Assembly (NCBI GenBank): GCA_977017645.1
Contig: OZ360225.1
Span: forward strand, 124,372,001-124,436,000
Reading direction: 5' to 3'
Source: Torpedo marmorata
Lineage: Eukaryota
Length of the DNA: 64,000 nt
A model generated the notes under the pieces. It made no database searches. It saw only the letters and a program-made list of their open reading frames with translations, and was not told the origin of the DNA. How positions within the stretch are numbered: position 1 is the first letter of the stretch; each line of letters starts with the position of its first letter. Of this stretch, positions 2,180 to 64,000 are shown piece by piece. Both the position numbers and the translations under genes were made by a program.

Positions 2180-2430
2180 TGTGGTAAACCACTGTTTATG
2201 TATTGTGGTGTAGAGGTGTATTGCAGGCTGTCCCGATGTCTACTCCCTCCCCTCCCTTGGGTGTCCAGGTAATCCCTCCCCTTTCCTCACCTGAATAAAG
2301 GCCACTGTATCTCGGCCACTCCTCCAGTCCGGGTCAGATCTGCTGGAAAGCTCTGCATAGTTCTTAGGTAATAAAAGCCTATGGTTCACTCACGCTCATA
2401 GTCTTCGAGTGTTTATTGATAGGCCTATCA
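2180..2430 (+). repeat. 5' LTR
   Basis: Base-by-base match to 6422..6672 on visual comparison. Confidence 0.97.
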
Positions 2431-2453
2431 ATTTTATTACCTAATAAAATCTG

Positions 2454-5400
2454 ATGGAAGGAGCCCTAAAACCGGACCGCCTGGACATCGATCACCTAGC
2501 TCCTGATGCCAGTAACTCCTTCGAACACTGGCTACGATGTCTGGAATCGTTTATGATCACCGTCCGAGCCGAAAGTGAGGAGCAGCAACTGAGAGTCCTC
2601 ATCTCCAGGGTGAGCTCTCGGGTTTTCACAACAGTGAGAGACTGTAGAACCTACACGGAGGCCATGGATGCGTTGAAAAAGATTTACTTGTCGCCTGTCA
2701 ACGCGGTCTACGCGAGGTACCGACTCTTTTCGCGAAAGCAGCGAGCTGGGGAGTCGACCGTGGAGTACGTCAGGGACATACAGTCGCTGGCTCGAGCATG
2801 CGACTGTAAAGCCCTAACGGCTGAGGAACACGTTGGAGTGGTGGAGAGAGATGCATTCATCATGGAGATCAGGTCGGTATATGTGCGCCAGAGACTGTTG
2901 GAGCACGCCGACCTGGACTTTCGTGGGGCAGTAGCGATGGTCCACACGCTGGAGTCCGCGCAGCGGAACTCCGATGCAATGCAGGTACGCGACCCCCAGC
3001 CCGCAACGTGGTCATCCCCATCCCCCAGCCCTGACAACGAACTGACTGCCGCCGCCGCCGCCGCCGTCCGTAGTGACCCGATCGCTACCGCGATCCTCAC
3101 CGCCGCTGCCGTCAACCGCGAGCCCGAGAAGTGTTACTTCTGCGGGCTCGATAAACACCCGAGGAAACGCTGCCCGGCCCGCGACGCAACTTGTTCCGGA
3201 TGCGGCAAGAAAGGCCATTATGTGAAGGCCTGCCGCTCCAAGTCGCGCCCGGGCCCGAGCAGTGCCGCGTGCGAGCTGCGGGGGCGGCCATCTTACCTGC
3301 TGCCGCTTCCGGCGTCGACCTCGTGTGAAGAATGGAGGCGACCATCTTTGATGCTGGCACTTCCGGCGCCACCACCCGCGTCGGTACTTCCGGCCTTACT
3401 ACCGCCGCCATCTTGCAGCGCGAGCAGCAGCGACACGTGCGATCCACGGGAGCGGCCATCTTTGACAACAGTAGAGGAGGAAGATGACTACATCTCAACA
3501 CTTGCATCAGTCACCCTTGACCAGAGTGTTCCACACCAGCTATCAAGATCCATGATGGACATTCTGGTGGAGGGGCACAAAACCACCTGCCTCTTCGATA
3601 CGGGCAGTACGGAGAGTTTCACTGTCCAGCGCTGTGGCCTCACTACCATACCGGTAAGCCAGAGGGTGGCCATGGCGTCTGGGGCTCACACAACAGACAT
3701 CCAGGGGGCTTGTGTGGCAAATATTGTTGTACAAGGGACTGAGTATCGACAATTTTCGTTATTTATTATGAATCGGTTGTGTGCACCTGTTTTATTAGGA
3801 CTCGATTTTCAGAGCCACTTACGTAGTGTTACTATGCGTTATGACGGTCCCCACCCTGCGATCACTGTAGTAAACCACCAGTTCCTGAATAATACGCCCC
3901 AAACTACCTGTGGCCTCTCCACTCTTAAGATCTCGCCGCCGTCGCTATTCGCCAACCTGACCCCTGACTGTAAGCCTGTGGCAACCAAGAGCAGGCGATA
4001 CAGTTCGGAGGACAGGGCGTTTATCAAGACGGAGGTGCAGAGATTATTACAGGAGGGGATTATTGAGAGGAGTAATAGTCCCTGGAGGGCACAGGTAGTC
4101 GTAGTAAAAGGGGCCAAGAGTAGGATGGTGGTGGATTACAGTCAGACGATTAATCGGTTCACACAGTTGGACGCATATCCGCTACCACGAATAGCGGATA
4201 TCGTTAATCAGATCGCCCAATACAGGGTCTTTTCCACTATCGACCTGAAATCCGCATATCATCAGCTCCCTATCCGACGGGAAGACCGACAGTACACTGC
4301 GTTCGAGGCAGATGGGAAACTTTTCCATTTCCTGCGGGTTCCGTTCGGGGTTACTAATGGAGTTTCTGTGTTTCAGCGGGAGATGGATAGGATTGTGGAC
4401 TACTATAAACTTAAGGCCACTTTCCTGTACCTGGACGATATCACCATCTGTGGACTGGATCGTCAGGATCACGATAACAACCTCCGGAAGTTCCTGCAGG
4501 CGGCAAAAGCACTAAACCTGACATATAATAAAGAAAAATGTGTGTTTGGTACCACACGCCTCGCTATTTTGGGGTATGTGGTAGAGAACGGGGTGATTGG
4601 GCCCGACCCCGACCGCATGCGGCCCCTACTGGAACTTTCACTTCCTCCCACCCCCAAAGCACTCAAACGATGCCTCGGGTTCTTCTCATATTATGCGCAG
4701 TGGGTACCAAATTATGCTGATAAGGCCCGACCCCTGGTGAAATCCACCGCATTTCCCCTTGATTCGGAGGCACGTAAGGCCTTTGACCTTATAAAAGGGG
4801 ACATTGCTCGAGCAACAATGCACGCAGTGGATGAAGGGACACCTTTTCAGGTAGAGAGCGACGCATCGGACTTCGCGCTGGCTGCTACCCTCAACCAGGC
4901 GGGAAGGCCGGTGGCGTTTTCCTCACGGACCCTTCAAGGCCCCGAAATTCGGCACTCCGCGGTAGAGAAAGAAGCCCAGGCCATAGTGGAAGCAATCAGG
5001 CACTGGAGGCACTATCTTGCCGGCAAGCATTTTACCCTGCTAACCGACCAACGCTCGGTGGCATTTATGTTCAACAACCAGCAGCGGGGTAAGATCAAAA
5101 ACGACAAGATCATGAGGTGGAGAATAGAACTCTCCACCTATAACTATGACATCCTCTACCGGCCCGGGAAGCTCAATGAGCCCTCGGACGCTCTATCCCG
5201 GGGATCATGCGCCAGCGCGCAGGTCGACCGATTACATGCCCTACACGACGTCCTCTGCCACCCAGGGATTACCAGGCTCTTTCACTTCGTGAAGTCACAG
5301 AACCTGCCATACTCCCTGGAAGAGGTCAGGACATTGATCAGAGGCTGCCGGGTTTGCGCGGAGTGCAAACCTCAGTTCTACCGCCCCGACAGGGCACAGC

Positions 5401-5873
5401 TGATCAAAGCCACTCGCCCCTTTGAACGTCTCAGTATTGACTTCAAGGGGCCCCTTCCCTCCACGAACCGCAACGTGTACTTCTTAAACATCATTGATGA
5501 GTACTCGCGGTTCCCCTTTGCCATCCCCTGTCTCGACACTTCAGCTACCTCAACCATAAAAGCTCTCCACCAGGTATTCGCGCTGTTTGGTTTCCCAAAC
5601 TACATACATAGCGACCGGGGAGCAGCTTTCATGAGTGAGGAGCTGCGACGGTACCTGCAGGCCCGAGGCATCGCCACTAGCAGGACCACCGGATCCAACC
5701 CCCGGGGAAATGGGCAGGTGGAGAGGGAGAACGCTACTGTATGGAAGGCCGCGCTCCTGGCTCTCAAGTCCAAGGGATGGCCGGTCTCCCGCTGGCAGGA
5801 TGTTCTTCCCGAAGCCCTCCACTCTATCCGGTCCCTGCTGTGCACATCCACCAACGCAACCCCTCATGAATGA
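2454..5873 (+). CDS. Gag-Pol polyprotein (1139 aa to a premature TGA; the frame continues to 6332)
   Basis: Two CCHC knuckles (CYFCGLDKHPRKRC, CSGCGKKGHYVKAC), protease LFDTGS, RT LDAYPLP...YLDD, RNase H VESDASD...EKEA...TDQ, integrase HHCC (H..LCH...CRVC) and D,D35E (IDFKG, HSDRG, VEREN). Confidence 0.96.
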   Translation: MEGALKPDRLDIDHLAPDASNSFEHWLRCLESFMITVRAESEEQQLRVLISRVSSRVFTTVRDCRTYTEAMDALKKIYLSPVNAVYARYRLFSRKQRAGESTVEYVRDIQSLARACDCKALTAEEHVGVVERDAFIMEIRSVYVRQRLLEHADLDFRGAVAMVHTLESAQRNSDAMQVRDPQPATWSSPSPSPDNELTAAAAAAVRSDPIATAILTAAAVNREPEKCYFCGLDKHPRKRCPARDATCSGCGKKGHYVKACRSKSRPGPSSAACELRGRPSYLLPLPASTSCEEWRRPSLMLALPAPPPASVLPALLPPPSCSASSSDTCDPRERPSLTTVEEEDDYISTLASVTLDQSVPHQLSRSMMDILVEGHKTTCLFDTGSTESFTVQRCGLTTIPVSQRVAMASGAHTTDIQGACVANIVVQGTEYRQFSLFIMNRLCAPVLLGLDFQSHLRSVTMRYDGPHPAITVVNHQFLNNTPQTTCGLSTLKISPPSLFANLTPDCKPVATKSRRYSSEDRAFIKTEVQRLLQEGIIERSNSPWRAQVVVVKGAKSRMVVDYSQTINRFTQLDAYPLPRIADIVNQIAQYRVFSTIDLKSAYHQLPIRREDRQYTAFEADGKLFHFLRVPFGVTNGVSVFQREMDRIVDYYKLKATFLYLDDITICGLDRQDHDNNLRKFLQAAKALNLTYNKEKCVFGTTRLAILGYVVENGVIGPDPDRMRPLLELSLPPTPKALKRCLGFFSYYAQWVPNYADKARPLVKSTAFPLDSEARKAFDLIKGDIARATMHAVDEGTPFQVESDASDFALAATLNQAGRPVAFSSRTLQGPEIRHSAVEKEAQAIVEAIRHWRHYLAGKHFTLLTDQRSVAFMFNNQQRGKIKNDKIMRWRIELSTYNYDILYRPGKLNEPSDALSRGSCASAQVDRLHALHDVLCHPGITRLFHFVKSQNLPYSLEEVRTLIRGCRVCAECKPQFYRPDRAQLIKATRPFERLSIDFKGPLPSTNRNVYFLNIIDEYSRFPFAIPCLDTSATSTIKALHQVFALFGFPNYIHSDRGAAFMSEELRRYLQARGIATSRTTGSNPRGNGQVERENATVWKAALLALKSKGWPVSRWQDVLPEALHSIRSLLCTSTNATPHE

Positions 5874-6332
5874 TTTTTTTCCTTCCCCAGGAAGTCGACC
5901 ACCGGGACCGCCCTACCTGCCTGGCTGATGTCCCCGGGACCAGTGCTGCTCCGCAATCACCTTCGGAGCAGCAAATATGAGCCGACAGTTCAGAGGGTGC
6001 AGTTGGCGCACGCCAACCCCCAATATGCGTACGTGGTCTTCCCTGATGGACGTGAGGACACGGTCTCGATTCGGGACCTGGTGCCCGATGGGGCACCGGA
6101 AGAACATTCCGACGGGCAAGACCACTTGCTGCAACCCCTCTCTAACTCCCCACCCAATGTGTCAGACCCAGCCCCCTCGACGGGACCACAGGCATTCCAA
6201 GAGGCCAGGCAGGAGGCGACGGCGCAGACGACCTTACCATCTTCCCCATCACTACCACCTCCCCCATCACCACAACCCGCCCCACGCAGGTCAAAGCGGC
6301 AAATTCGGCCGCCGGATCGCCTTGACCTGTGA
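5874..6332 (+). pseudogene. In-frame integrase C-terminal domain beyond the premature stop
   Basis: Same frame as 2454; FFSFPRKSTTG...ANPQYAYVVFPDG...RRSKRQIRPPDRLDL* aligns with the sister element at 1..513. Confidence 0.9.
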
Positions 6333-6421
6333 AAAAGGACTTGTACATATTTTTCTTTTATTGTGTGTTTAATTAGAGTGGTCACGTCACCCCGTTGGAT
6401 TCTTTTAAAAGGAGGGGTGAA

Positions 6422-6672
6422 TGTGGTAAACCACTGTTTATGTATTGTGGTGTAGAGGTGTATTGCAGGCTGTCCCGATGTCTACTCCCTCCCCTCCCTT
6501 GGGTGTCCAGGTAATCCCTCCCCTTTCCTCACCTGAATAAAGGCCACTGTATCTCGGCCACTCCTCCAGTCCGGGTCAGATCTGCTGGAAAGCTCTGCAT
6601 AGTTCTTAGGTAATAAAAGCCTATGGTTCACTCACGCTCATAGTCTTCGAGTGTTTATTGATAGGCCTATCA
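6422..6672 (+). repeat. 3' LTR
   Basis: Follows the PPT AAAAGGAGGGGTGAA, is identical to the 5' LTR and is followed by the TSD TGGCC. Confidence 0.97.
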
Positions 6673-7134
6673 TGGCCAACCTTTTACATTCCATGCGTCA
6701 AAATAAATGGTGACAAGGAGGAATTGCGAGAGCGGGCCTTGGTAGCCGCCATGTTGTATTTGGCTTCGGCCTTTTAATAAGTTGAGAGTGAACAGGATGA
6801 TGAGGAAGGGTGGACAGAGCGGAGAAGAAAGAGGTGTGTGTTCTTTGTATGTCGGGGGGTATCGGGGGGTGGCACTGGCTGGGGTTGGCGCTGACCGGGG
6901 TGGGGGGTGGCGCGAAGCCCGGCTGAAGAAAATTATTTTTTCATTATCCAAGGATAGAAACTGCTCAGTGGCGCCCCCATTCAAGTAGCGCCCAGGGCAT
7001 ATGCCATACCTGCCACACGTTAGATGTGCCTCCAGATGCTGCAGAGATCAGTGGGTGCTGCAGAGATCGATGGATGGTGCAAGAATTGTTGGGTGGGGCA
7101 GGGATAGGTAGATGGTGCTGGGATCAGTGGGTGC

Positions 7135-7462
7135 TGATGATGCTATAGCCTTGTCCCTCCACTCCGACCTGACCCACTTGGAAGACGACGCCTCATACTC
7201 CAGGGTGCTGTTCATCGACTGCAGCTTGGTGTTTAATGCAATCATTCCCCAGAGGCTGGTGGAGAAGCTGTCCTCGCTGGGACTCAACAGCCTTCTCTGA
7301 AACTGGATCCTGGACTTCCTAACAGAAAGACCACAGTCTGTCTGGGTCTGTAGCAGAACATCGAGCACCGTCACGCTGAGCACTGGCGCACCTCAGGGCT
7401 GTGTGCTCAGCTCGCTCCTGTTCACACTACTGACCCACGACTGCATCATCAGATCCAGCTAC
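7135..7462 (+). mobile_element. Rex1/Babar-type LINE RT fragment
   Basis: DAIALSLH...[16 protein letters not shown]...[12 protein letters not shown]...GAPQGCVLS, with a stop/frameshift. Confidence 0.85.
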
Positions 7463-8183: not shown

Positions 8184-9915
8184 TCAGAATCAGAATCAGA
8201 ATTTATTGTCATGAACAAGTCATGAAATTCGGTGTTTTGCGGCAGCATCATAGTGCAAACATTCATATTATAACCATCTTACGACATTACTATAAAAATA
8301 TATATAAAAATAATAGTGCAAGAAAAGTAAGGCAGTGTCTTTGGTTCATTGCTTATTCAGGAATCTGATGGCAGTGGGGAAGAAGCTGTCCTTGTGCCAT
8401 TGAGTGCTCATCTTTAGGCTCCTGTACCTTTTTCCCGATGGTAGCAGAGTGAAGAGGGCATGGCCTGGGTGGTGTGGGTCTTTGAGGATAGAGGCTGCAT
8501 TTTTAAGACACCACCTCATGTAGATGTCCTCGATGGAGTGAAGTTTGGTGCCTGTGATGTCACAGGCCGAGTTAACAACCTTCTGGAGTTTACTCTTGTC
8601 CTGGGAGTTGGCGCCTCCATACCAGGCAGTGATGCAACCAGCCAGAATGCTCTCCACGGTACACCTGTAGAAGTTTACGAGAGTCTTCGGTGACATACCG
8701 AATCTCCTCAGACACCTCACAAAGTATAGCCGCTGGCGAGCCTTCTTTGTGATTGCATCAACGTGGAGGCTCCAGGACAGATCTTTGGAGATGTTGACAC
8801 CCAGGAATTTGAAGTTCTTGACCCTCTCCACTACTGAGCCCTCGATGAGGACTGGGTCGTGTTCCCCTGACTTTCTCCTGAGGTCCACAATCATCTCCTT
8901 GGTTTTGCTGACATTGAGCGCAAGGTTGTTGTTGTTACACCATTCAACGAGCTGATCTATCTCCCTCCTGTATGCTTCCTCATTGCCGATTGTGATTCTT
9001 CCGACAACTGTGGTGTCATCGGCAAACTTGTAGATGGCATTGGAGTTGTGCCTGGCCACACAGTCATAGGTGTATAATGAGTAGAGCAGTGGGCTAAGCA
9101 CACATCCTTGGGGTGCGCCTATGTTGATAATCAGTGAGGAGGAGACGTTGTTTCCAATTCGTTCTGACTGTGGTCTTCCGATGAGAAAGTCAAGGATCCA
9201 GATGCAGAGGGGGGTACAGAGGCCTAGTGTTTGTAGCTTCTTGACCAGCTCTGAGGGAATAATGGTATTGAAGGCCAAGCTGTAGTCGATGAAGAGCAGC
9301 CGTATGTATGAATTGCTGTTTTCGAGGTGATCCAGAGCTGAGTGGAGAGCCAGCGATATTGCATCTGCTGTGGAGCGATTGTGATGATAGGCGAATTGTA
9401 GTGGGTCCAGATCTTTGCTTAGGTACGTGTTAATTCTGGCCATGACCAGCCTCTCAAAGCATTTCATCACAGTAGAAGTTAGTGCGACTGGGCGGTAGTC
9501 GTTGAGGCAGCTCACACTACTCTTCTTGGGTACCGGGTTTAAAGAAAACCCCAAGGCATTCTACTGTTATGGACCATGACTGACCATTTGGACTGTGGAC
9601 GGTCAGCAGGAAGGATGAAGTCTTTTGGAGTATACACTGGGACCATTGAGGCAGCCCACACTACTCTTCTTGGGTACCAGGATGACTGATGCCCTTTTGA
9701 AGCAGGTGGGAACCTCTGACTGCCGCAATGAGAGGTTGAAAATGTCCGTGAACACTCCGGCTAGTTTGTTGGCGCAGATTTTCAGTACCCTGCCAGGTAC
9801 GCCGTCAGGGCCTGATGCCTTGCGAGGGTTCACTCTCTTGAATGATGTTCTGACGTCGCCCTCAGAGACAGATATCACAGGGTCCTCAGCCTTTTCAGGG
9901 ATTCTAGTAGGCACT
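8184..9915 (-). mobile_element. 5'-truncated Rex1/Babar LINE with an almost open RT frame (8346..9534) and an (ATTCTG)n tail
   Basis: [62 protein letters not shown]; the 3' end is TGACAATAAA plus ATTCTG repeats. The upstream part at 9646..9915 encodes RKASGPDGVPGR. Confidence 0.93.
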
Positions 9916-20149: not shown

Positions 20150-20488
20150 ATGAAGGGTGCAGAATTTGAATGGAAAAGATTGACTGCTCTACTGTTCGTT
20201 GCCCAAGCCGCTGTTGCGATTATGAACCCCAACATTACTTCAGAACTGGATGCAATGCTAGCAACGTTTCTGGAAGATGGTGAAGAACGCGGGGCAACAG
20301 GAACAAACCTTGAAGCAACTGGTAGTTTAGATTCAATCAAATCCAATTATACGAATCCAAATGAACCACCCAGGACTTCCAGAAGAGCTAAAAGATCTAT
20401 CACAGATAACGATAGACAAATAATTTTGGATCTGCACAATAAATTGAGAAGTCAAGTGTCACCAAGTGCATCTAATATGGAATATATG
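20150..20488 (+). CDS. CRISPLD1: CRISPLD1 exon 2 (signal peptide, pro-region, RRAKR furin-like site, CAP start)
   Basis: MKGAEFEWKRLTALLFVAQAAVA...RRAKRSITDNDRQIILDLHNKLRSQVSPSASNMEYM|GTAAGT; the exon starts at 20085. Confidence 0.95.
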
Positions 20489-21896
20489 GTAAGTGTACAT
20501 CATCTGTTTTAGAATTGTTTAGCTCTTATAAAAAGTTGTAATTAAGCTTTTTATGGCCAGAAATATGGATTAAAATTTGTTTTGGTTCAACTTTCATTGA
20601 GATGTAAGTGCTCTGCACAAACAAGCCATTACCCTTTGGTAAGACTAACAATGCGAAGGTGGAAATGAACAATCAGAACATTATTTCATCATGCTATACG
20701 AGTTAAAAAATCAAGAAATAAGTCATTTTAGTAGGACCTTGCGATCGTTTGCACTTTCAAATGTACACATTCTAAAATAACGTGCTTTGTGGGAGAGCAC
20801 AGGAACACCTTCTGTCCTCTTTGGATGAGGCTGTCCAGAGTTGAGTAATGGTTACCATATTCCAAAGAGAAAAATGAAAATTTTTATGTTCTCTCTGAGC
20901 ATAAACTACTTCTTCAGGAATAAAAGCATGTTTTCAATATGTTCCTATTTCTGTGGCAAAAATAAGTACCACAGTAATTTCAGAAACACTGCCCGAAAAG
21001 CCAGTCGTTGCAACCTTATTTTAAACGTCATCCTACTTCATAAATGGCCTTCGAATATAATGTCCAAACACTTTTATTTGGGAGCTGGTTGGTGCCGGGT
21101 AATAATTATTCTTTATTGCACAATTTATTTGAGTAAACTTAGGGTTGGCCAGCAGAGGGAGTTAAGTTGTCAGTGCCACAAGGCACGCTTATCTGATGTT
21201 TTCATGAACGGATTAATGCGTTTATTTGAATATCAGCAAGTGAAATTTTATCTGGAAGTACAACACATTATTGTAGTCACCTATGGCACAATTTCATCAA
21301 TAACGCTTCAGAATGTTGAAAGAATGTAAGATTTCATTGATAAGTTTATGAAGCGAAAGTTTCCATTTACAATAATTATCACATTCCAGTGGAAATCCCG
21401 AGGTGCCCCTTTTGGCAATGTGATAAAGGCACTACATTTTGACGTTCAAAAACAAGAAGGAAACCAGAAATTATAAACCGGACCTTTACATTTCCTTAGT
21501 GAAATAGCAAACTTTGCAGAACATTATTGTGCAGAAGAACACGGGTGAATCTCTACTGAGCTCTTGTATTAACATTCTTACTTTACACAGGTGATCAGAA
21601 GAATTTAAATTGATATACATATTCTGTGAACTGTTTTATTTGTCATATCATGTACATTGGCAAATAGTTTTTTCTTCAGTTTATTGTAAAGCCGCCAGAC
21701 CCAATACTGACAATGTTTATATGCATTTTTGATGTAAGTACACATTTACAATGGATGTTTGGTCAGCTTCTGTTGTTTATTGCATCAATAAATAAAGTAT
21801 TCAAATGCTTTTTCCAGGTAGATACATTGTATATGTTTTCTTTCCAATTTTTGATGATCCATTGAGCAGCATGAATATTTGTACAGTATAATTGAG

Positions 21897-26095: not shown

Positions 26096-27804
26096 TATTT
26101 TATTATTCAATAGTTATGTATCAATTATTTTCCCAGTTAATCTTACCCGTAAGATTATCTGTTCCCTGCATTATATTTTAGTTACATATAATGTTCATTG
26201 AGGCTCTACAAGTGTAATTTTTTAATCAAGTGCACTAATTTTAATAAAGTAATAGACAATACAACAGTACACTATGAGCATTTTTATTTTGTGCATTTTA
26301 GTTTCTTTACTAACATAAACTAATCCCAAACTTAAACAAATTATCTACCAGAAAACAGCTTTCTCCAATTTGAATTTTGAATTTTATGCACAGATATTAC
26401 TGAAGTTAAATTTGTACTTTGTTGTAACATTTGCTCTCAGCAGATGAAACAATGAACCATTTACTTCTGGTTGACTTGCCTTTTTTTGAATTGAAAGCCA
26501 ATTTACACAGTAAAAGCAATATTAATTTGAATCAAGTTGATTTGATATGAATGCAGTCTCCTGTTGGTGTTTACATTGCTGCTGCCTAATCCAAAATTTT
26601 CCATGAATGTCTTATATCAAGTGACACATGCTTTGCTTCTTAGGACAGAAAGCTATAGGTAATTTAATGAATTGAGCTCTACTGTTGTAGTTTGAATAAA
26701 GTTTATTTGTAACCATTCTGAGAAAATTTATTGAAAGTGTGCAAAGGGGCTTAACATGTATTGGACTGGAAAACATGCTTGAAAGGAAAATTTGACTTGG
26801 TGTAGGATGTACATGAAATTTGTGCCCCCAGCTCATTATTGTGATTTGAAACTATTTGGAGAGGTGCTTATTGGCTGTGCTTGATAATGGAGTAATTCCA
26901 CTGGTTTTGCAGTGTTAGAGAGGGAAGGTACCCTGGATTGAGAGAGAGTTTTTTGACTGCCTTGGGGAATGAGTTGGAGGAACTCTTCTTCCTGCAGGCC
27001 CCAGTGTGGCTTGTTCATAGTCAAGCATCAGTGGAGAAGTCCAATTAAAATCAACTCCAGGAAGTTCTAGAGAAGTGGATGCAGTGCACAAAAAGCTTAA
27101 TGTCTGTGTCTGCATGAACAAGATCGGTTAAAGGCAATATCAAATCCCTCTCTGAAAAACTGTGCCATATACCTCACATGATGCTTCACACTCTAATCAC
27201 CAACACAACATTAGTCTCCATCATCGGGACTCCTATGGAATTTTCCTTATCTAAGTCTCACAGCTTCTGCATCCCTCAGCCTTATCAGACGTTGCAAAGT
27301 ACTTGCTAGTACATTTTGCTATCACTTGAAGAGAAGAAGGCAGTAAACAAACATTGTCAGTGAGCATATACTTATTCTATGGACCTATTTTATGACCAAT
27401 ATTAGGCCTCTTTATAGCAAGGTTCATGCCCAGAAGTGGTATAAAGATCATTTGAGTGTACTAATATGCTCTGGTCCAATATCTCCCTTCCTTCTACACC
27501 CTTGCCCACTGTACTCTAATTCCTTTACAGGAGAGCTGCTGCTTTGAAAAGCCTGCACCTGTTACATGTCCTTTCTACTTATCACCATATCCTTGTGCTT
27601 TCCTTCCTTCAGATATAGATGTTAATTAAACTATTTGAAAGAATAAGACATTGCATTTTATTTTGTTTGAGGCATAGAAATACATTAATTTAATCCATAA
27701 ATAGAAAACTTGCTTCATGACTGGAGTTACAACTAGATGTAATTTTCAATTTTTTTGTCAAGGTACACCATTTGAACCTTTTAATTATCTGAAGAATAAC
27801 CATA

Positions 27805-28283
27805 GTAACTGCCTAGTACAAGACCGCAAAGTACTCCAGCGGGTGGTGAAAACTGCCCAGCGGATTATTGGCATGCAGTTGCCCACCATCGAGAACATCT
27901 ATAGAGAACGGTGTCTGGGCAGGGCGAGGAACATCATTAAGGATGCATCACACCCAAATCATGGACTTTTTACTCTTCTCCCATCGGGCAGACGCTACAG
28001 GAGCCTTCGCTCGCGTACCAGCAGGCTGAAGAAGAGTTTCTTTCATGAGGCTGTGAGCCTGATGAACACTGAATCACAGCGCTGAGTGGTACTGCACTCA
28101 CAGTGTAATATCAGTACTTTTATAATAGTTTGTTGTTGAATAGGTTGTCGTTGTTGATTAGGTTATTGTTGGTTTTAATTGCACATGTTTTACTGTGATG
28201 TATATAGCACTATTTTTTAACTTCTGGTTGGATGCTAGTTGTATCTCATTGGCTTGTTTTGAACTGGTACAATGACAATAAAG
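27805..28283 (+). mobile_element. Rex1/Babar 3' end with an (ATCTA)n tail
   Basis: LQRVVKTAQRIIG...[31 protein letters not shown]; TGACAATAAAGTGCATCTAATCTAATCTAA. Confidence 0.9.
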
Positions 28284-38321: not shown

Positions 38322-39016
38322 CAAGTAGTTCCCAACTTGCGACCTATGCGACTTACGTCCATCCGCATATATGACCGAATTTCTTTTAAAAATATATAAG
38401 AAAAAATATAAAATTTACACGGTTTATGTTGTATTTGACAAACTATAACAGGGATACAGGGCATGTAAGAGCCAAAATGTCCGTACTTACCTTGTTAGTC
38501 GGCGTCCCGGGGTCCATAGGCTGGGCGCGGCCACCTTGATTCCTGTGCGCATGCGCGAGTCTTCGGTTGGCGCACGCGCAGTGGGTTCGCGTATTGGAGT
38601 TCGGTTGGTGCATGTGTGAGAGTTAAGGGCGCGAATTCAAAATCGTCAGGGCGCTTAACTCTCGCGCATGCGCCAACTGAACTCCAATACGCGAACCCAC
38701 CATGCATGTGCCAACCGAAGACTCGCGCATGCGCACAGGAATCAAGATGGCCACGCCCAGCCTACAGACCCCGGGATGCCGACTAAAAAGGGAAGCATGG
38801 ACTAGAATGTGGAAAGATTCGCCAAGGTTGATCGACAAAAATTCAGGAAGTTTTAAATTGTTATCGTCAAATCTATGATGAAAAAAAGATTTGATTAAAA
38901 AGTTTGCTTTAAGACTTTGGTACTCCACGCGCTCGGTCAAAATTCCGACTTACATCCATTCCGAGATACGACCGATCCTTTGGTCCCAATTACGGTCATA
39001 AGTCAGTGACTACCTG
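38322..39016. mobile_element. Tc1/mariner (Tigger/pogo-like) MITE with a long internal palindrome
   Basis: TA|CAAGTAGTTCCCAACTTGCGACC ... GGTCATAAGTCAGTGACTACCTG|TA; internal inverted repeat at 38495..38786. Confidence 0.85.
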
Positions 39017-44850: not shown

Positions 44851-46186
44851 ATTCAGATTTCAGATTTATTGTCAGAGTACATACATGACATCACATACAA
44901 CCCTAAGATTCCTTTTTCCTGCAGGCGCGGCAGAATTACCACTAATTGGTAGTGCAAAAATAAACTGTACACAGCGTAAACATGTAAACAAATAAAAGAA
45001 CTGTAAACAGATAATGAATGTAAACAAACTGACTGTGCAATACAGAGAGAACAAAAGAAAATCAATAAAGTGCACAAGAGTCCTTAAATGAGATACTGAT
45101 TGAGTTTGTTGTTGAGGAGTCTGATGGTGGAGGGGTAGCAGCTGTCCTGAACCTGGTGGTGCGAGTCTTGTGGCACCTATACCTCTTTCCTGATGGCAGC
45201 AGCGAGAATAGAGCATGTGCTGGGTGGTGTGGGTCTTTGATGATTGCTGCTGCCCTCCGACGGCAGCGTTCCCTGTAGATGTACTCAATAGTGGGGAGGG
45301 TTTTTCCTGTGATGTCCTGGGCTGTGTCAAGTACCTTTAGGAGGGCTTTACGCTCAGGGGTATTGGTGTTCCCATACCAGACTGTGATGCAGCCGGTCAG
45401 CACACTTTCCACCACACATCTGTAGAAATTTGCCAGGGTTTCTGGTGTCATACCAAACCTCTGCAAACTCCTGAAGAAGTAGAGGCGCTGACGTGCTTTC
45501 TTCATGATGCCATTGGTGTGTTGGGTCCAGGAAAGGTCCTCCGAGATAGTGACTCCCAAGAACTTAAATTTGCTCACCCTCTCCACCTCTGATCCCCCAA
45601 TGATCACTGGATTGTATACCTCTGGCTTTCCTTTCCTGTAGTCAACAATCAGCTCCTTAGTTTTGGTGACATTGAGTGCAAGATTGTTGTTGGTGCCCCA
45701 TTCAGCCAAGTTTTCAATCTCCATCCTGTATGCTGACTCATCCCTTCCTTTATACAACCCACTTCCATGGTATCGACGGCAAATTTGTAGATGGTGTTAT
45801 TGTCGTACCGAGCTACACAGTCGTAGATATAAAGTGAGTAGAGCAGGGGGCTAAGAACACAGCCCTGTGATGCTCCGGTACTGATGGAGATTGTGGAGGA
45901 GAAGTTCTTACCAATCTTCACTGATTGTGGTCTGGAGGTGAGGAAATCCATGATCCAATTACACAGTGGGGTGTTAACTCCCAGGTCTTGGAGTTTGCTG
46001 ATCAGTTTTGAGGGGATGATGGTGTTAAATGCCAAACTGTAGTCGATAAAGAACATGCTAATGTTTGCATCTTTGCTGTCCAGGTGTTCCAGGGCTTTGT
46101 GTAGAGCCAGTGAGATGGCATCTGCCGTAGACCTGTTACTACGATAGGTGAACTGGAATGAATCCATGTCACCGCTCAGACAGGAG
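44851..46186 (-). mobile_element. 5'-truncated Rex1/Babar LINE (frameshifted RT)
   Basis: [47 protein letters not shown]; tail TGACAATAAATCTGAAATCTGAAT. Confidence 0.92.
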
Positions 46187-48679: not shown

Positions 48680-48786
48680 GTAAGTAGCAGGAATGGATAT
48701 TGCTGAATGATTGCTTTTAGTTAGTGTGTAATGCTGTCAGTGTCAGAGGGGCTCAGCTAGGGTTGCTCTGATTTCTGATGCACAGG

Positions 48787-51700
48787 TGTACTGATAGAGT
48801 GCTAGTGCTAATTCTGACCACTAGGGGGAGTCGGGAGATGAGCTGTTGTATCTTGGGTAGATTCAAAATGGATGCCTCCATGAGGTCTTTTGTGAGTGTG
48901 CTCTAGCTAATAAATATAGTTGTTTTAAAAGAACCCAAGTTTCTTTATTACAATAAAAGAAACATCACATGGTACCAGGAGTGTGCAGTGTGCACAGGAG
49001 TGGAACATACACCAGGAGTGTGCAGAGTGAGTATCAGTTGATATAGCAACAGAAAATATGGAGAGTATAAAGTCTCCTAACGCTGTAAATTGGACTAGAA
49101 ATGTCGACCACGAGTGGAGGCTGTTCAAACAAAGATTCACGCTGTACCTGCAAGCCATTGGAGTCAGTAGAAAACCTGATGCATGGAAGATTGCACTGCT
49201 ACTTACTGTGGCGGGACCTCAAGCACTAGAGGTTTTCAATACATTTGTTTTTGCCGAGGCAGAAGACCAGGGCAAGTTCGACAAAGTTATTAAGATGTTT
49301 GATGAACACTGTTCACCAAAGAAAAATGAAATGTTTGAGAGGTACGTGTTTTGCTCGCGCACGCAGCTGCAGGGAGAGAGCTTTGATACTTTTTTAACAG
49401 ACTTGAAATTAAAAGCAAGAGCATTCAATTTTGGATCGCTGCAAGATTCAATGATCCGTGATCAAATTGTGTTCGGGATTATTGATAAGAAAGTGAGAGA
49501 GAGGTTGCTGCGAGAGACAGAGCTTACCTTAGCTGGAGCTGTGAAGATATGCAATGCTAATGAATTAGTTCTGCAGCACGTGAAAAAGGTGAGAGTGCAA
49601 AAGCCATTGAAAACGAAGGCATAGCCGTAGCCACAATGTGTGTCCACACACATAAACAAAAAACTAATATAGGAAACAAAAAAAGATGGAGAGACATTCA
49701 AGTGCAAACGATGTGGCACTCAATATGCACCAAACCAATGCCCCGCCTATGGAAAAGTCTGTAATAAGTGCAAAGGGCAGAATCACTATGCAAAGCAAAG
49801 TTTTTCCAAAGGGAAATAAAACAGAAGTGAAAGCGTATACACTGTACACACAATAGAAGGAACTGCCCTCAGTGATACACTTTTCATTGGCATGGTAGTG
49901 CAGGAAGATTATAAACCAACAGACACTGAACAGCCAAGCGTGAACAGAGTCGAGCAGGATAAGTGGACTGTGTCATTGCATACAAATGGAACAAATATTC
50001 CTTTCAAGCTGGACACAGAGGCAAAGGTCAATTTGATCTGTGAGCATGACATCAGGGCAATGAAGATAAAGCCATACATCCATGCAAATCCGATACAGCT
50101 CAAAGCCTACAATGGACAGAGCATTGACACGAAAGGTACATGTAAACTCAAGGTGAATGTTAAAGATAAAGAGGACCACCTCAGGTTCACAGTAGTCCCA
50201 GATGGACATGAATCACTGCTTGATGACAAAGCATGTGAAAACTTAAGCCTAGCCAAGAGGGTGTTCACACCAGGGAAACCTATTGTGTTAGCTGATGCGT
50301 TGTCTAGGGCAACGACGCAGGGTGAAGCAAACAATGAGAGTTCCACAGAGACAGATGTGAATCTCCACGTGAATCTGATCACTGAATATCTTCCCGTATC
50401 TGACATGAAATCCAAGCAGATTGCAGCTGAACAGACAAGGACACAGTTCTACAGAAGGTCATCGAGAATCTGAATGAAGGATGGCCTAGAGGTGAATGTA
50501 AGCCATACTTCAACATCAGAGCTGAGCTGAGTGTTGTCAATGGGCTTCTACTCAGACAGAGCACAATTGTCATTCCTCAATCACTGCGACAAGAGATACT
50601 GAAAAGAGTGCATGAGGGGCACCTTGCAATGGAAAAATGCAAGAGGACGGCCAGAACTGCTGTTTATTGGCCAGGGATAAATGCTGACATTGACAGAATG
50701 GTTTCAAGCTGTGAGACCTGTTTGAAACATCATGCAAAGCAGACAAAGGAACCCATGATCATAACTGCCTTACCAGCGGAACCATGGCAAAAGTTGGGAC
50801 TGATCTGTTCCACATGGATGGATGAATTACTTGCTGGTTATTGACTATCTATCAAACTATCCAGAGATTGTGCTGCTTCCTAATATGTCTGCTGCTTGTG
50901 TGATCAAATATATGAAATCGATCTTTGCAAGACATGGAATTTCTCAAATTGTCTGCAGTGACAATGGATCATGCTACAGCTGTAGAGAATTCCAGAACTT
51001 TGCAGAAGAGTATGATTTTCAACATGTGACTTCAAGTCCTCTGTATCCACAGTCAAACGGTAAAGCAGAGAAAGGAGTGCACATAGTTAAACAGTTGCTC
51101 AATAAAGCACTAGACAGTGGCTCAGATCCGTATCTAGATCTATTGAGTTACAGAGCTTCGCCATTTGAACATGGCATGTCATCCGCTGAGCTTCTAATGG
51201 AACATAGACTACGCACCACACTTCCCTACTCTGCATACCCAAACAAGAACAGAGATGTCGAAGATGTCGAACGGAAACAAAAGCGTCTTCAATGGAGACA
51301 AAAAGCAAATTATGACAAGTCAGCAAGAAGCTTAGGTCCACTGGCACAACATGACACAGTGAGAATCAGAGATTCCCACACTTGGGACAAAAAGGTTACT
51401 GTTCTGGAGGAAGTAAATCCAAGATCCTACACTGTCAGAACAGAGGATAGTCGAATACTGAGGAGGAATTGAAAGAGCCTGCTGAAAATGCAAGAGACAC
51501 TGCAGGAACAGACAAATGCAGAAGATCCAGCCTGCACAGCAATAGAGAAAACACCACCAGTGCTAGACAGTAGTGGACCAGCAGAGCCGACACAAGCACC
51601 TGTGTTAAGAAGATCCACACGCGTTATCAAAGCACCTGACAGATTGAATCTCTAAAAGAAAAAGAACTGCACATTTAAAAAGTTTGTGCTGCTGATGTGT

Positions 51701-51967
51701 TTACGTTTGTGTTGAACTTTAAATTGAAATGAATGCTATATTAGTGTGTCATGTTGTTAGATTAAACATCTCAAGGAAAGGAGATGTACTGATAGAGTGC
51801 TAGTGCTAATCCTAACCACTAGGGGGAGTCGGGAGACGAGCTGTTGCATCTTGGGTAGATTCAAACTGGATGCCTCCACGAGCTCTTTTGTGTGTGTGCT
51901 CTAGCTAATAAATATAGTTGTTTTAAAAGAACCAAAGTTTCTTTATTACAATAAAATAAACATCACA
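48787..51967 (+). mobile_element. Older Ty3/Gypsy (Mag-like) element lacking RT and most of RNase H, in intron 13
   Basis: 183-bp LTRs (48787..48969 and 51785..51967, ~10 mismatches), TSD ACAGG, PBS TGGTACCAGGAGTG, PPT AAGGAAAGGAGA. Gag (WRLFKQRF, RDQIVFGI), PR (FKLDTEA), IN (HEGH..C..C, SDNG, SNGKAE); several stops and frameshifts. Confidence 0.95.
48970..48983 (+). other. Primer-binding site complementary to the 3' end of tRNA-Leu(TAA)
   Basis: TGGTACCAGGAGTG is the reverse complement of ...CACTCCTGGTACCA, the vertebrate tRNA-Leu(UAA) 3' end as recalled. Confidence 0.75.
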
Positions 51968-63777: not shown

Positions 63778-64000
63778 TGAGGTGCCATCAATTACTTCAA
63801 AAGACTACAAGTTTTATAGGAATTGAAAGGCTTTTATTAACAATAGAATCGTGCCACGTCCGTGTTGGTTGTTTGTCCTGGACTGGGGAAGGAGCAGTGG
63901 CACAATCGCCTTTATTCAGGGGGTTTGTGGGAGGAGCCACAGGAACAGTCAGCAGAGGGGCATGTCCAGACATATCCAGACAGCTTACACAGCCACAACC
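63778..64000 (-). repeat. LTR (3' or solo) of the same family as 582..816, truncated by the window end
   Basis: The reverse complement aligns with ~603..816 (ATATGTCTGGACATGCCC..CTGCTGACTGT..GTGGCTCCTCCCACA..CCCCCTGAATAAAGGC). Confidence 0.9.

Follow-up and report, generated by a model that had tools for sequence, protein, structure and literature searches.

A Gypsy retrotransposon lineage of Torpedo marmorata with a primer-binding site complementary to its own long terminal repeat

Introduction

To our knowledge, self-priming of reverse transcription has been shown only in the fission-yeast retrotransposon Tf1; it has been predicted for related chromoviruses and for a single lineage of plant Copia elements, with some animal Gypsy elements also reportedly called self-primed in Repbase notes. 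The available text on Tf1 describes priming with the RNA's first 11 bases after RNase H cleavage (PMC7175516), and that on the Tf1/sushi elements describes a chromodomain together with a three-duplex structure (bioRxiv 10.1101/2022.12.06.519325). In the portions available of further papers, Tj1 is proposed to prime itself (PMC4600332), the same is predicted of Tcn1 and TAR Copia (PMC6317226), and alternative transcript starts are described for Tf2 (PMC5341516).

Here we describe a Gypsy element from Torpedo marmorata, found in a window of 64,000 nucleotides (the whole stretch of DNA analysed). Like Tf1 and Tf2 of Schizosaccharomyces pombe, Tj1, Tosmo, and the Tf1/sushi elements, it combines the order protease, reverse transcriptase, RNase H, integrase (PR-RT-RH-IN) with a site for primer binding (PBS) that is complementary to its own long terminal repeat (LTR) and a short spacer between the two, and predicted stems neighbouring its primer duplex recall those of the Tf1/sushi group. 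In contrast to Tf1, the poly(A) signal itself serves as the pairing segment, the duplex comprises 14 bp rather than 11, and the primer is predicted to begin ~37 nt before its paired part, rather than consisting of the first 11 bases. As with Tcn1 (Gypsy) and TAR, Houba, and Osr-1 (Copia), self-priming is inferred from LTR/PBS complementarity, a trait predicted in more than one lineage; those elements are, however, from plants and fungi, with Tcn1 chromoviral and TAR a Copia element, and the available text of the paper concerned does not mention overlap with a poly(A) signal (PMC6317226). With 13–14 nt at the docking place of a tRNA pairing with the element's own terminal repeat, DNA copying is likely to start from its own RNA, and we put the probability that this element and its relatives prime reverse transcription in this way, rather than with a tRNA, at roughly 0.9.

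Results and Discussion

Architecture and classification of the element

The element occupies positions 2180–6672 of the forward strand, with intact ends bounded by a 5-bp target-site duplication, TGGCC (2175–2179 and 6673–6677). Its 251-bp LTRs (2180–2430 and 6422–6672) are of the TG...CA type, the 5' LTR having the terminal letters CTATCA, and are 100% identical; the copy is young, and the 6.2 Gb T. marmorata genome contains many others 99% identical to it. A single gag-pol open reading frame (ORF; 2454–5873), encoding two CCHC knuckles, protease, reverse transcriptase (RT), RNase H (RH), and the integrase core, is closed by an in-frame stop codon (5871–5873) upstream of the integrase C-terminal tail (5874–6332), with a polypurine tract (PPT) at 6407–6421. 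The TG...CA LTRs, target duplication, PPT, and PR-RT-RH-IN order place the element among the Ty3/Gypsy LTR retrotransposons, and Ty3 is the closest of the solved structures to its RT. Among named proteins, the closest matches come from rays and a catshark (74–82% identity), followed by those of a sea anemone and of Trichuris/Trichinella (57–65%). A tandem repeat region with a 19-bp period surrounds the element on both sides (1996–2154 and 7016–7155).

The initial annotation described an element without a chromodomain and with a double CCHC motif, and this description extends to the lineage, with no Pfam chromodomain in the tail of the window copy or in any of 11 relatives (0/11), and two CCHC knuckles in 76 of 86 members; a chromodomain search across the genome gave 15 matches. 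These traits distinguish the element from the Tf1/sushi group, under which it is not filed for want of a chromodomain, despite its probably Tf1-like working. A second element in the window (48784–51967), which on the basis of database names we take to be a K02A2.6-like Gypsy of the Mag type, is internally deleted, with LTRs 94% identical and a TGG-type PBS, and was used as a contrast. Both lineages are animal, chromodomain-less, and have a single ORF and short LTRs; the K02A2.6-like elements, however, have TGG-type PBSs, RT-RH sequences only 24–30% identical, and one CCHC knuckle in 44/44. In an unrooted RT-RH tree of the two groups (37 rows), they are split by a branch with a support of 100.

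Naming of the clade was attempted by two routes: the RT motifs of the element were not found in five supplements of PMC6238403, and a protein atlas gave generic RT clusters only. The available text of PMC6238403 and PMC2774666 holds nothing on PBSs or self-priming, and the portions available of the full-text literature searched (including PMC3601003, PMC6934838, PMC10886601, PMC5006619, PMC5443660, and PMC2774666) gave no account of this lineage as self-priming.

A primer-binding site complementary to the LTR

The 5' LTR is followed by a spacer of one base (A2431) and by the PBS, TTTTATTACCTAA (2432–2444), which is not of the TGG type and is the exact reverse complement of positions 2364–2376 of the 5' LTR and 6606–6618 of the 3' LTR. 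This arrangement, reported in the initial annotation, is confirmed by the sequence and by shuffling of the leader, in which a 13-nt match to the LTR was reached in 0/20,000 shuffles. The annotation was also right that the leader between LTR and ATG is only 23 nt and that the pairing segment overlaps AATAAA, the segment ending in the poly(A) hexamer (2370–2375); an additional AATAAA upstream in the LTR (2294–2299) was absent from it. A hairpin within the leader itself (2431–2450) was considered and rejected as weak (−1.3 kcal/mol, compared with −12.9 kcal/mol for the LTR duplex).

In the family the duplex is 14 bp long, with the window copy mismatched at the fourteenth position. Of the 30 closest copies, 29 keep this mismatch, which suggests that overwriting of the PBS from the primer is rare. 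Two close copies differ in other ways: in L007 the PBS matches the LTR out to 16 nt, a possible overwrite from the primer, and in L028 the LTR has changed without a matching change in the PBS.

Covariation across the genome

A pattern in which AATAAAA, the junction CAATTTTATT, and the start codon were fixed and the remainder left free identified 29,263 LTR-PBS junctions in the genome, compared with 5 for a reversed control pattern. Covariation was examined in 90 of the first 100 pattern matches. Positions 8–14 of the duplex, on which the pattern placed no condition, are paired in 0.90, 0.97, 0.98, 0.97, 0.94, 0.90, and 0.80 of these copies, compared with 0.45, 0.32, 0.80, 0.48, 0.45, 0.39, and 0.49 with shuffled partners, with as many as four Watson-Crick pair types at a single position. 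The 90 copies contain 47 different PBS 7-mers, 52 copies are perfectly paired, and pairing ends abruptly past 14 bp (0.14 at position 15). With 11 family clusters (79 copies) taken as the units, 6.4 of 7 positions are paired with the cognate LTR and 3.3 of 7 with non-cognate LTRs, a difference reached in 0/20,000 permutations. The PBS/LTR covariation check proposed with the initial annotation thus shows pairing kept while the letters vary.

Three candidate extensions of the pairing were also considered. Position 18 of the duplex register pairs in 0.60 of copies (0.38 shuffled) but is isolated, and a pairing reading was rejected, as was pairing of the 5' tail of the primer with the leader and the start of gag, which beats shuffled tails but shows no family-specific covariation (p=0.43). 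A CCAT just 5' of the duplex (2357–2362 register in sister families), present in 44/90 copies and also in L145, could pair with the ATGG of the start codon and lengthen the stem across it; covariation of this extension was looked for and none was found.

The pairing recurs in related families. The window begins with the 3' part of a sister family (1–816), for which the genome holds at least 4,712 LTR-PBS junctions, and ends within the LTR of another (63778–64000, reverse strand, cut by the window end). The PBS that had been predicted from the first of these LTRs (582–816, the forward-strand 3' LTR) is seen in most copies of its family, with sub-variants tracking the LTR, and the prediction from the second is seen in 93/100 copies among the matches listed. 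Among 21 metagenome loci, a readable leader was present in four independent families, three of which retain the duplex although their LTR sequences are unrelated (13 bp ending on ATTAAA in one, 16 bp in another, and 9 bp with a bulge in the third), in each case with a one-base spacer, GCC behind the hexamer, and AATAAA or ATTAAA as the hexamer. In the fourth, L147, the LTR complement is absent. The viral contigs searched contained no relative.

The TGG-starting PBS of the tRNA-primed clades (Mag, CsRN1, errantiviruses) occurs in 0/90 leaders, and a search for a TGG-type PBS behind this type of LTR gave mostly unrelated matches. Screening of host tRNAs gave a longest PBS match of 5–7 nt, in a set of 27 tRNA genes for 7 amino acids only, which likewise missed the tRNA of the TGG control element (48784–51967). 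As the set is incomplete and misses the control's own tRNA, a tRNA primer is excluded by the covariation rather than by the screen: because 47 PBS variants track the LTR, no single host RNA could match them.

LTR anatomy and predicted folding

The upstream AATAAA (2294–2299), 76–79 nt before the hexamer of the duplex in 75/90 copies, precedes the A of an initiator-like CCAGTC (2324–2329) by 32 nt. TATA boxes and start sites are spaced in this way, and we predict that the upstream motif acts as a TATA-like box and that transcription starts at A2326, as suggested by the conserved spacing and by the pile-up of arm ends described below. A second initiator-like motif (2357–2363) could provide an alternative start giving a short primer, with the A at 2359 present, with pyrimidines on its flanks, in 34 of 59 distinct sequences. 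Downstream of the duplex hexamer, CA dinucleotides at 12–23 nt and a GT-rich tract resemble a poly(A) site.

The local 5' duplex is present in the lowest-energy fold of 90/90 copies. When folding begins at 2326 the hexamer is paired with a probability of 0.98–0.99, compared with ≤0.03 in the context of the 3' LTR, where the AATAAA (6612–6617) is predicted to be unpaired. Beside this central duplex, a nearly invariant GCCT (2377–2380) is predicted to pair with 2421–2424 in a stem of 3–4 bp, the alternative to which is a hairpin at the end of U5 across the LTR edge (2415–2432); both stems are conserved, with almost no two-sided changes and little covariation in the hairpin. No third, covarying duplex of the kind found in a "pretzel" structure was detected among the family copies. 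In retroviral 5' LTRs the poly(A) hexamer is likewise hidden in a stem, an example being the polyA hairpin of HIV-1; the strand hiding it in the present element differs, however, in being the PBS, which lies behind the 5' LTR only, and the stem is likely also the primer.

Mis-copied elements with inverted LTR arms

A search for PBS copies extending beyond 14 nt, using four patterns blind to arms shorter than 17 nt, gave 127 matches (controls 0). After one duplicate was dropped, 126 mis-copied elements were examined, in which the LTR and spacer A are followed by an inverted LTR arm, with many of the whole structures bounded by 5-bp duplications. An idea that extended PBS copies end at 18 nt proved wrong, most continuing much further. 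Of the arms, 52 are partial and 74 span the whole of U3.

The ends of the partial arms pile up 51–53 nt upstream of the duplex end, at the initiator-like A 32 nt behind the TATA-like box. Of the 52 ends, 14 fall within 3 nt of the predicted start and a single one in the 7 nt lying upstream of that interval; within 3 nt the count is 1 of 44 ends (p=0.001) in control structures, which are mirror images crossing the same sequence in the same direction. The discovery set gave 7/24 against 1/19 in the control (p=0.06), and families fetched once the idea had been noted gave 7/28 against 0/25 (p=0.011); the pile-up also survives windows of 2–5 nt and removal of three events with one shared acceptor. 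Given this difference from the control, the template was most likely an RNA with its 5' end at about 2326, although a second packaged RNA, and not an attached primer, could have supplied the copied end. The mis-copied elements are moreover a selected minority, in which long-tailed transcripts may be over-represented. Arms continuing past the predicted start (15 of the 52 partial arms and all 74 whole-U3 arms) need fold-back or mis-transfer as an extra step, and a second cluster consists of short arms of 17–24 nt, with three short arms being start-codon look-alikes.

In 22 cases the arm enters PPT-side bases instead of host flank, some for 76 to >1,300 nt before sense sequence resumes. Six mini-elements of ~420–450 bp (L255, L256, L281, L315, L325, and L330) consist of one LTR and an inverted U3-R arm; they terminate in U3 at either side, are bounded by perfect direct 5-bp target duplications, and are apparently integrated snap-back strong-stop DNA. 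The target duplications of the mini-elements and the arms running into the PPT side would place the errors in reverse transcription, before integration, and the mis-copied elements show that plus-strand DNA ended in the PBS copy. A separate set of six near full-length copies with target duplications (L218, L220, L221, L225, L234, and L244) has a 5' LTR with U5 inverted behind AATAAAA; in these the normal primer site can no longer form.

Proposed priming mechanism and alternatives

The proposal of the initial annotation, that priming is independent of tRNA and uses an LTR-derived segment, gains strong support at the level of sequence from the covariation, both sister-family predictions, the distant relatives, and the mis-copied elements. 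The evidence leans towards a primer that would derive from the 5' rather than the 3' copy of R and be longer than its paired part. The mechanism is probably Tf1-like, with a capped 5' primer of ~51 nt (2326–2376) whose 3' end is the final A of AATAAAA and whose pairing would be confined to its last 14 nt. Transcription would start near A2326, and 2363/4–2376 would then pair with the PBS, as folding predicts and covariation supports. The duplex would hide the 5' AATAAA, so that no early cut and tailing occurs, with the hexamer of the 3' LTR staying free. By analogy with Tf1, RNase H of the element may cut between 2376 and 2377, just 5' of GCCT. The 3' end thus created would lie one base off the LTR edge, a geometry seen directly in the sequence, and DNA synthesis from it would copy ~55 nt before a jump to the 3' R by way of the stretch bounded by the cut and the poly(A) site. 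The mis-copied elements suggest that the primer would remain attached and that plus-strand strong-stop DNA would normally pair via its 14-nt PBS copy, with an occasional run-on to the 5' end of the primer, or fold-back, giving inverted LTR arms. An unpaired primer tail of 37 nt looks costly, and no Tf1 precedent for it was found in the available text.

A primer of plain Tf1 type, in which the 5' end of the RNA coincides with that of the duplex or slightly precedes it (2359–2364), yielding a primer of 14–18 nt, with minority transcripts from 2326 making the mis-copied elements, would explain the sharp duplex edge at 14 bp, the initiator-like A at 2359, and the cluster of 17–24-nt arms, and would match both the 11-base primer of Tf1 (PMC7175516) and the alternative starts of Tf2 (PMC5341516), as given in the available text. 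We nevertheless consider it unlikely, as the sole TATA-like box lies 32 nt before 2326 with none before 2359, the biggest pile-up of arm ends is at 2326, and three of the short arms are the look-alikes noted above. Quite unlikely, too, is priming from the 3' copy of R, with the 3' end of the same or a second packaged RNA trimmed to AATAAAA. This would account for R reaching ~37 nt upstream of the duplex, those 37 nt serving strand transfer, and read-through would yield the mini-elements and the arms that pass via U3 and PPT into internal sequence; the 3' hexamer is, in addition, predicted to be free. However, minus-strand-like arms ending at the transcript start are then expected and were seen in 1/44, the 14/52 pile-up is not produced by this route alone, and the local 5' duplex would need displacing.

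The duplex might instead merely hide the 5' poly(A) signal, with priming by a tRNA fragment or other host RNA. The invariant core of the duplex is indeed the hexamer, AATAAA and ATTAAA are the sole forms seen, and the tRNA set screened was incomplete, but a duplex always ending at the required primer end point, one base off the LTR edge, together with PBS variants that no fixed host RNA could match and the lack of TGG in all 90 leaders, makes this very unlikely. Least probable of all is that the inverted-arm copies are products of host DNA repair or replication at the 14-bp inverted repeat, and so uninformative on the primer, which would leave self-priming to the covariation alone. Rearrangement within an integrated element would likewise retain the target duplication; in the mini-elements, however, the direct 5-bp duplications abut the inverted U3 end, arms proceed into PPT-side bases rather than host flank, and host enzymes would not halt at a transcript start.

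The lineage-wide self-pairing PBS is a real feature and probably represents a variant of a known self-priming mechanism. A wider reading, to which we give slightly less than even odds, is that self-priming arose independently in an animal Gypsy lineage that lacks a chromodomain and is widespread (rays, sharks, sea anemones, trichinellid nematodes), with one 14-bp duplex acting as primer and poly(A) switch, the primer being a capped RNA of ~50 nt or the RNA's own 3' end, and its 5' end recorded in mis-copied elements. If this were so, such elements would allow retroelement primers and start sites to be mapped from DNA alone, and as fossil reverse-transcription errors with target duplications they would be rare genomic evidence on an intermediate. 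A very abundant animal self-priming lineage outside the Tf1 group, with covariation at the family level, would show repeated loss of host tRNA use, and dropping the tRNA would therefore also mean escape from control by tRNA fragments. Fusion of the primer with the poly(A) signal would solve the asymmetry of the 5' and 3' LTRs with a single stem.

Other features of the window

Inspection by eye suggests fragments resembling LINE-type (non-LTR) reverse transcriptases at 8346–9467 and 45062–46167 (both reverse strand), 27717–28085 (forward strand), and 7150–7450, and a forward-strand ORF at 20150–20512 resembles an exon of a host secreted protein of the CAP/CRISP type. An inverted repeat of 152 bp, 88% complementary and with arms 20 nt apart, is present at 38479–38802.
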